Shown: positions 472 to 650, counted from the first letter of the stretch. The stretch is DNA of 11,623 bases from a virus (IMGVR_UViG_2681813228_000014); one strand, 5' to 3'. Program-made: numbers and translations. Notes: a model not told the origin generated them from the sequence alone.

Positions 472-497
472 AAAAAAAAGGCCCGCAAAAGCGAGCC
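472..497 (-). terminator. Rho-independent terminator (minus strand) just 3' of the tRNA-like element
   Basis: GGCCCGC / AAAA / GCGAGCC stem (6 of 7 bp) with an A8 run on plus (472-479), i.e. U8 after the hairpin on the minus strand. Confidence 0.5.
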
Positions 498-511
498 AGG
501 GAAAATAAGTG

Positions 512-587
512 TGGCGCGTTGTACTGGATTCGAACCAGCGACCTGGCGATTATGCGTCGCTCGCTCTCACCACTGAGCTAAAGGGCC
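512..587 (-). tRNA. tRNA-like element with CAU anticodon (tRNA-Ile2/Met-like body); acceptor stem not complementary, so possibly a pseudo-tRNA or recombination remnant
   Basis: Minus-strand sequence GGCCCTT-TA-GCTC-AGTGGTGA-GAGC ... GCTGG-TTCGAAT-CCAGT ... GCCA has a canonical D-arm, a T-arm with TTCGAAT loop and 3' CCA. Anticodon loop reads CGCATAA (G at position 33, where U is usual). 5' acceptor GGCCCTT does not pair with 3' ACAACGC. Hand-folded only. Confidence 0.4.
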
Positions 588-624
588 GGGAGCAGAATAA
601 TAACGGTCCGTAATTAATTCCGCA

Positions 625-650
625 ATAAAAAACCCGCTCAATGGCGGGTT
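625..650 (-). terminator. Rho-independent terminator (minus strand) between the ORF6N-like gene and the tRNA-like element
   Basis: AACCCGC / TCAATG / GCGGGTT stem; on the minus strand it is followed by TTTTTTATT. Confidence 0.55.

Follow-up and report, generated by a model that had tools for sequence, protein, structure and literature searches.

The window analysed here, a stretch of 11,623 nucleotides from the viral sequence IMGVR_UViG_2681813228_000014, carries a tRNA-like element on its minus strand, at a mid-prophage position between the gene for a Q-type antiterminator and the late region (Table 1); the position downstream of Q is the canonical site for phage tRNA genes. Directly past the terminator of the element, the genes for an STnc100-family sRNA and for the anti-sRNA AgvB abut end to end, and they match the sRNA pairs at the moron site of EHEC prophages. 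Convergent sRNA pairs have been described in a "moron" site downstream of PR' (PMC4104026). Upstream of the element, isrK, C4 antisense RNA and an ORF with an ORF6N domain make up a set that resembles the P1 immI-like (C4/antirepressor-like) module and is inserted between Q and a pR'-like block; the O157 strain ECP19-598 is without this entire insertion. Elsewhere in the window, the ORF that matches Pfam Beta_protein looks like an inserted cargo gene.

Table 1. Features of the locus. Coordinates are those of the window unless another locus is named.
Feature	Coordinates	Strand	Basis and remarks
Chimeric tRNA element ileZ'::'argO (type A), very probably a pseudogene	512..587	minus	76 nt including the encoded CCA; sequence, Rfam, ARAGORN, cluster alignments, PGAP
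ileZ-derived part	539..587	minus	GGCCCTT, D-arm, anticodon arm with CAT, U33 replaced by G, variable loop, first T-stem base (G, the ileZ allele)
Crossover block CTGGTTC	532..538	minus	common to ileZ and argO; bounded by the diagnostic sites G539 and G531
argO-derived part	512..531	minus	T-loop from G57, T-stem 3' strand CCAGT, ACAACGC, discriminator G, CCA
Upstream hairpin with U-tract	624..652	minus	stem 652..629, U-tract to about 624; -13.1 kcal/mol, z -2.9
Downstream intrinsic terminator (that of argO)	472..497	minus	stem 497..480, T8 to 472; -13.8 kcal/mol, z -3.5; terminator scan
Promoter-like block TTGCAT-17 nt-TTCAAT	737..709	minus	possible pR'
STnc100-family sRNA gene	243..435	minus	Rfam, 146.8 bits; directly downstream of the element; same order after intact clusters
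AgvB anti-sRNA gene	181..242	plus	Rfam, 96.5 bits; convergent with STnc100
Q-type antiterminator (DUF1133 / Phage_antitermQ)	1574..2248	minus	Pfam, 2.2e-105; upstream of the element
isrK	1541..1465	minus	
C4 antisense RNA	1439..1356	minus	
c4 a1b1 target match	1554..1502	minus	
ORF6N-domain ORF	887-1303	minus	preceded by isrK and C4; truncated according to RefSeq in an identical copy
hok/sok-type toxin-antitoxin RNA (sok)	4521-4696	minus	119.8 bits
Pfam Beta_protein ORF, 365 aa	5084-6181	plus	on the strand opposite to the surrounding early-right genes
Type B chimera ileZ'::'argO	L008 2514-2589; L024, L029, L032		loci outside the window

Read from 587 to 512 on the minus strand, the element is GGCCCTT-TA-GCTC-AGTGGTGA-GAGC-G-AGCGA-CGCATAA-TCGCC-AGGTC-GCTGG-TTCGAAT-CCAGT-ACAACGC-G-CCA. 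A D-arm, an anticodon arm, a T-arm with a TTCRANT loop and a 3' CCA (514..512) are all there; the anticodon reads CAT (554..552), and position 33 is a G (window 555). The acceptor strands GGCCCTT and ACAACGC form 2 of 7 pairs in the canonical register, these being the two end pairs only, and 4 of 7, counted by eye, if the 5' strand is moved by one base. An earlier description of this DNA, which we call the sequence-only reading, had listed the tRNA-like arms, the CCA, the CAT, the non-pairing acceptor and the unusual G33, and each of them was found where it had placed them.

The resemblance of the element to a tRNA is well above chance. The Rfam model RF00005 gives a match of 37.3 bits (gathering score, 29; E=5.6e-05 for a search of the full window). 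This match is local, from 581 to 522 and over model positions 7-64 of 71, with posterior probabilities at their maximum throughout, and the acceptor stem lies outside it. ARAGORN made no call, either by default or with its threshold lowered to 70%, the relaxed setting standing in for the pseudogene mode that the sequence-only reading had recommended, yet the Rfam score is there; the element is neither a tRNA that folds well and has matching acceptor strands nor a sequence without tRNA-like score. In identical copies of the element, PGAP annotates a 71-nt "tRNA-Met" that corresponds to window 582..512 and thus begins five bases into the 5' acceptor strand; in none of the inspected genomes is the call flagged as a pseudogene.

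A 174-bp deletion between ileZ and argO

The genes ileZ, argN and argO are well known from Stx and related phages. In Stx-converting and lambdoid phages, such as Nil3 (AM051322) and the EDL933 prophages, the ileZ-argN-argO cluster occupies the same slot downstream of Q as the element does, with the same flanks on both sides. In our alignments, the window tracks the upstream flank of intact ileZ (as in loci L004 and L003) and ileZ itself as far as 539, and then follows argO from the T-loop through the trailer and terminator into the downstream flank of intact argO (L003, L005 and L006); a single gap takes in the 3' end of ileZ, the whole of argN and the first two-thirds of argO. Except for G33, the first 49 nt of the element (587..539) are those of intact ileZ in strain 90-3040, EDL933, phage Nil3 and the O157 strain PNUSAE145590; its last 20 nt (531..512) are those of intact argO (tRNA-Arg, UCU) and run on into the downstream flank of argO in 90-3040, EDL933 and Nil3. 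The crossover is confined by two diagnostic sites, GGTC[G/A]CTGG, where ileZ has G and argO has A at 539, and TTC[A/G]AAT, where argO has G and common ileZ has A at 531.

The length of the missing DNA agrees with this junction. In the intact cluster of strain 90-3040 (L003), the T-arm direct repeats begin 174 bp from each other. From the start of ileZ to the end of argO there are 250 nt, and subtraction of the 76-nt chimera leaves a deletion of 174 bp, which is the spacing of the repeats. When the 261-nt region was searched against 5,426 E. coli genomes and the phage collection, it matched ileZ-argN-argO clusters in two pieces, one ending and the other starting at the T-arm. A deletion of 174 bp has fused ileZ to argO, and one unpaired hybrid stands in the place of three tRNAs. 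The sequence-only reading had compared the element to phage tRNA-Ile2(CAU) genes of the ileZ kind and had suggested either a decaying phage tRNA gene or a chimera from recombination between tRNA genes, with a possible breakpoint at the T-arm and with alignment to ileZ, argN and argO of Stx phages as a check; the alignments bear this out, the junction falls exactly at the T-arm, and the two suggestions turn out to be one and the same explanation.

In some swine ETEC strains (E. coli genome matches H320-H327), an intact tRNA-Ile has the argO-like T-loop TTCGAAT instead of TTCAAAT. If the ileZ parent of the chimera had a TTCGAAT T-loop, the crossover interval could widen to 538..524.

We propose that the element is a chimeric tRNA pseudogene produced by the 174-bp deletion between the T-arms of ileZ and argO and most likely inert as a tRNA, and we hold this explanation with high confidence. 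An ancestral lambdoid prophage carried ileZ (tRNA-Ile2, CAU), argN (tRNA-Arg, UCG) and argO (tRNA-Arg, UCU) downstream of its Q antiterminator. Loss of 174 bp between the near-identical T-arms of ileZ and argO (GGTCGCTGGTTCAAATCCAG versus GGTCACTGGTTCGAATCCAG), with the crossover within CTGGTTC, took out the tail of ileZ, argN as a whole and the first two-thirds of argO, and left the 5' acceptor strand, D-arm and anticodon arm of ileZ joined to the T-loop, 3' acceptor strand, G73 and CCA of argO. As the route, we infer either slippage during replication or recombination through short homology, acting on direct repeats with a spacing of 174-177 bp. Deletion and fusion between tandem tRNA genes are a known kind of event, of which the tandem tyrT copies of E. 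coli are the classic case; as there, a deletion between direct repeats gives one fused gene, and it recurs at different crossovers (types A and B, below). Unlike in the tyrT-type deletions, the partners here are non-isoacceptors with unrelated acceptor stems, and the expected outcome is a dead product, not a functional single copy.

The parent genes make the defect of the acceptor stem understandable. Both parents pair completely, ileZ with GGCCCTT/AAGGGCC (7/7) and argO with GCGTTGT/ACAACGC (7/7), whereas the two strands of the chimera cannot pair because they derive from different tRNAs, the 5' strand from ileZ and the 3' strand from argO. In intact loci, ARAGORN calls ileZ(cat) and, as tRNA-Arg, argN(tcg) and argO(tct), and at the loci with the window's chimera it calls nothing; the Rfam scores of the intact genes are 67 bits for ileZ, 58 for argN and 70.1 for argO, all full-length, versus the local match of the chimera. 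RNase P, TilS and the aminoacyl-tRNA synthetases depend on the acceptor helix and the discriminator; TilS and IleRS use acceptor-stem pairs, and for an ileZ-type tRNA the helix and A73 are needed for recognition. U33 is near-universal and is required for the U-turn of the anticodon loop. Judged by this established tRNA biology, the hybrid RNA should not serve RNase P, TilS or an aminoacyl-tRNA synthetase, and it is most likely inert as a tRNA because it has no acceptor helix and carries G33 in place of U33. Since the D-arm, anticodon arm and T-arm are intact, the RNA could still build some kind of tertiary core like that of a tRNA. The loss of the genes would be tolerated through other ileZ- or argO-bearing prophages in the same STEC genomes, as is suggested by match counts: chimera-carrying genomes have 4-12 places that match the region, pieces of intact clusters being joined into one place in these counts.

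The RefSeq annotation amounts to a different proposal, namely that the element is a functional tRNA-Met or tRNA-Ile2. The unflagged PGAP label in all inspected genomes, the Rfam score above gathering, the CAU anticodon, the three intact arms and the encoded CCA speak for it, but none of the tRNA classes in question fits the element. By the general tRNA definition (RF00005), the score, the three arms and the CCA are present, but the 7-bp acceptor stem and U33 are absent. A tRNA-Met would share the CAU, but the body here is that of ileZ, which PGAP labels "tRNA-Ile" when intact, and there is no acceptor stem. A tRNA-Ile2 of the ileZ/ileX type (CAU, lysidine-modified; the class of host ileX and ileY) would share the CAU and the ileZ-type D- and anticodon arms, but the GGCCCTT/AAGGGCC helix is missing and G73 replaces the A73 of intact ileZ, the 3' strand being demonstrably that of argO. 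It is no tRNA-Arg of the argO type (UCU) either, the argO sequence making up just the last 20 nt and the anticodon being CAU. Taking these together with the two acceptor pairs, the Rfam match that leaves the acceptor out, the silence of ARAGORN even at 70%, the G33 and a PGAP call that is itself truncated inside the 5' acceptor strand, we consider a functional tRNA extremely unlikely; the "tRNA-Met" label is an annotation artefact. The element is an ordinary decay product rather than an RNA of a new kind.

The T-arm and the 3' end of tRNA genes are frequent targets of integrases. It could accordingly be supposed that the chimera was made at the attachment site of a phage or island, by an integrase acting in the 3' half of a tRNA gene and leaving the displaced 5' part behind, and an att-like site was indeed among the origins that the sequence-only reading had entertained. 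A 2026 preprint also takes tRNA-like matches near prophage sRNAs as insertion-site remnants (10.64898/2026.05.13.724894). At this locus, our alignments do not support the integration-site reading of the preprint: both flanks are collinear with the intact ileZ-argN-argO cluster, namely the normal upstream flank of ileZ and downstream flank of argO; what has been lost corresponds exactly to the stretch from one direct repeat to the other; and the 3' part is that of the phage gene argO, not of a host tRNA. The element moreover lies in mid-prophage, from Q to the late region, and Pfam scans of 15 of the larger ORFs of the window showed no integrase among them. We give an attachment-site origin hardly any credence. 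The tRNA-like matches in the moron region past Q descend from the ileZ-argN-argO cluster that the phage itself carries, and are not remnants of insertion sites.

A second fusion and the distribution of the first

The chimera of the window, which we call type A, is not the only fusion of these genes. A type B ileZ'::'argO has the same parent genes, the same kind of T-arm crossover and the same PGAP label, tRNA-Met, as type A. Its crossover lies in AATCCAG, 3' of the T-loop, instead of CTGGTTC, so that U33 and the ileZ T-loop TTCAAAT are kept; its deletion measures 177 bp instead of 174 bp, relative to the parent arrangement at L034 980-1232 (strain PKF4); and its 3' acceptor strand is ACAGCGC, from a variant argO, instead of ACAACGC, with a downstream flank unlike that of type A. 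In a shifted register, the acceptor of type B makes 5 of 7 pairs, whereby ARAGORN calls a tRNA-Met, and the Rfam score is 47.2 bits. Its carriers are APEC, UPEC and other non-STEC E. coli, for example 10035210-2 and APEC O2-211. The flank of type B was matched at 99% identity or more in about 43 genomes, compared with about 1,143 genomes that have an intact tRNA-Arg in that flank. The fusion event is recurrent, and because two independent events have used different crossovers, the T-arm homology is a recurrent deletion hotspot of tandem phage tRNA genes.

The census of type A was made with a 50-nt junction sequence that has no 28-mer in common with either parent, so that only chimeras can seed matches; longer queries were left out of the census, the BLAST pieces of intact clusters merging into one place with them. 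Of 5,426 complete E. coli genomes, 162 have the type A junction, in one or two copies each, and IMG/VR contigs contribute 22 further copies. Among the sampled census rows, the serotypes were O157:H7, O121:H19, O145:H28 and O111:H8, and carriers of O103:H2 and O45:H2 appeared in another search; the sampled type A carriers are all STEC-type, and all listed type A copies are annotated "tRNA-Met". Neither junction, A or B, had a match in the GTDB representative genomes, a set with one genome per species.

These copies are strikingly uniform. All type A copies are identical or one base apart, and in the 162 genomes the allele is 100% conserved across several serotypes and at least three combinations of flanks. 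At least two upstream and at least two downstream flank types accompany the identical allele. Upstream, the DUF1133-type Q may stand directly before the element, or the same Q may be followed by the isrK-C4-ORF6N insertion as in the window, or, as in EC4115, a different antiterminator may be followed by a DNA methyltransferase. Such varied flanks around one identical allele are as would be expected from mosaic exchange among lambdoid prophages, although the invariance of the allele could also mean retention instead of recent spread. Intermediates that would tell which came first, the deletion or the change from U33 to G, were looked for but did not turn up: G33 occurs in every type A copy, whether in the 162 genomes or in IMG/VR; a search of the 5,426 E. 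coli genomes and of IMG/VR for an intact ileZ that carries it gave nothing, and a type A chimera that keeps U33 was not found either. The junction with its private G33 is a handy marker for one prophage module that moves among STEC lineages.

Some copies have changed further. In the IMG/VR copies L012 and L021, both of type A, the GG of the D-loop has become AG (AGTGGTGA to AGTAGTGA), and in L032, a type B copy from IMG/VR, the 5' acceptor GGCCC has become GGTCC. The additional changes in these three copies are consistent with continuing decay.

The distribution also bears on whether the chimera exists in nature or arose in the computer, from collapsed tandem tRNA repeats. Deletions between short direct repeats are prone to mis-assembly, but the type A chimera is identical in 162 genomes finished independently in many laboratories and recurs in the 22 IMG/VR contigs, the repeat is only about 20 nt long, and a collapse would not create the chimera-specific G33. 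An assembly artefact is, in our judgement, practically negligible as an explanation.

Terminators, transcription and annotation

The sequence-only reading had placed terminators on both sides of the element and had taken them as a sign that it was once an independent transcription unit. Both are real hairpins with the form of terminators, a GC-rich stem followed by a U-tract, with termination activity as a prediction from that form. The consensus terminator scan listed the downstream hairpin only; in our reading, the upstream one was missed because part of its U-tract can pair as a prolongation of the stem, so that the T bases left over are too few for the rule of the scan. The upstream hairpin is also present before intact ileZ, in identical form in PNUSAE145590 (L004) and with the same stem and another loop in 90-3040 (L003) and PKF4 (L034), and the downstream terminator is identical after intact argO in 90-3040, EDL933 and Nil3. 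Because they flank the intact three-gene cluster too, the terminators are inherited and nothing specific to the chimera. The idea of a former unit of the element itself is not supported: the hairpins bracket the ancestral three-tRNA cluster, and in the EC4115-type flank the identical chimera stands without any upstream hairpin.

A role for the upstream hairpin can be suggested from its surroundings. In relatives that lack the insertion of the window and have Q directly upstream, the hairpin lies about 80 nt past the Q stop codon. About 60 nt before the hairpin, the TTGCAT-17 nt-TTCAAT block is kept in three upstream contexts; as a weak match below the threshold of the scan, it may be the pR' that belongs to the DUF1133-type Q, and over 150..1400 the consensus scan turned up no strong sigma-70 promoter. 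Because it follows Q by about 80 nt and lies downstream of this conserved promoter-like block, the upstream hairpin probably serves as tR', the terminator of the late operon.

This context invites the question of whether the element has been retained as a functional tRNA-like RNA, such as a decoy that would draw off tRNA-targeting nucleases or modification enzymes, or a precursor whose argO trailer and terminator would be set free as an Hfq-binding sRNA. Read-through from a Q-dependent late promoter might, for instance, yield an RNA made up of the acceptor-less tRNA core and the U-rich trailer and terminator of argO, and this RNA might act in trans, either as a decoy while the prophage is being induced or by supplying an Hfq-bound sRNA; to this particular version we attach a very small probability. 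The identity of the allele in 162 genomes and several flank contexts, the three intact arms, the strong terminator with its U-rich trailer and the density of regulatory sRNAs in the region (AgvB, STnc100, isrK) would all suit a function of this kind. Identity is, however, expected without selection in recently exchanged prophage modules, some copies have suffered the extra damage to the D-loop described above, and the same trailer and terminator follow intact argO, so that a function of the trailer needs no chimera. The minimum free energy of the chimera is also no better than that of shuffled sequence (z about -1.0), but when the chimera, the intact ileZ and argO genes and the flanked region were folded by MFE, z was weak throughout and the intact unmodified tRNAs gave no cloverleaf either; as the method does not discriminate between intact tRNAs and the chimera, we left it out as evidence. 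A retained function is very unlikely in our view, and the tRNA-like structural RNA that the sequence-only reading had offered as a further possibility finds no support here, with further decay changes in some copies.

As a decay product, the element leaves the understanding of tRNAs or prophages unchanged; its importance lies in annotation. About 3% of finished E. coli genomes carry a scar that is labelled as a working tRNA-Met, and type B is labelled likewise in other lineages. Such mislabelling inflates tRNA counts and could mislead work on phage-borne tRNAs and codon supply. Our literature search (ileZ/argN/argO, hybrid tRNA, tandem tRNA recombination) returned no description of this hybrid, which is weak evidence of novelty given that few subscription papers were covered.

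Of further note, the annotated tRNA-Ile copies are not all pristine. The "intact" ileZ of strain 90-3040 (L003 1564-1639) has AGGCC for AGGTC in the variable region, and its 3' acceptor strand is AAGGTCC, which gives a C3-U70 mismatch. In the otherwise intact clusters of PNUSAE145590 (L004, about 1697-1776) and PKF4 (L034, about 1063-1142), the argN slot holds a remnant that neither ARAGORN nor PGAP calls; it has the acceptor strands, D-arm and T-arm of argN, with the middle replaced by non-tRNA sequence, and represents a second mode of decay of the cluster.
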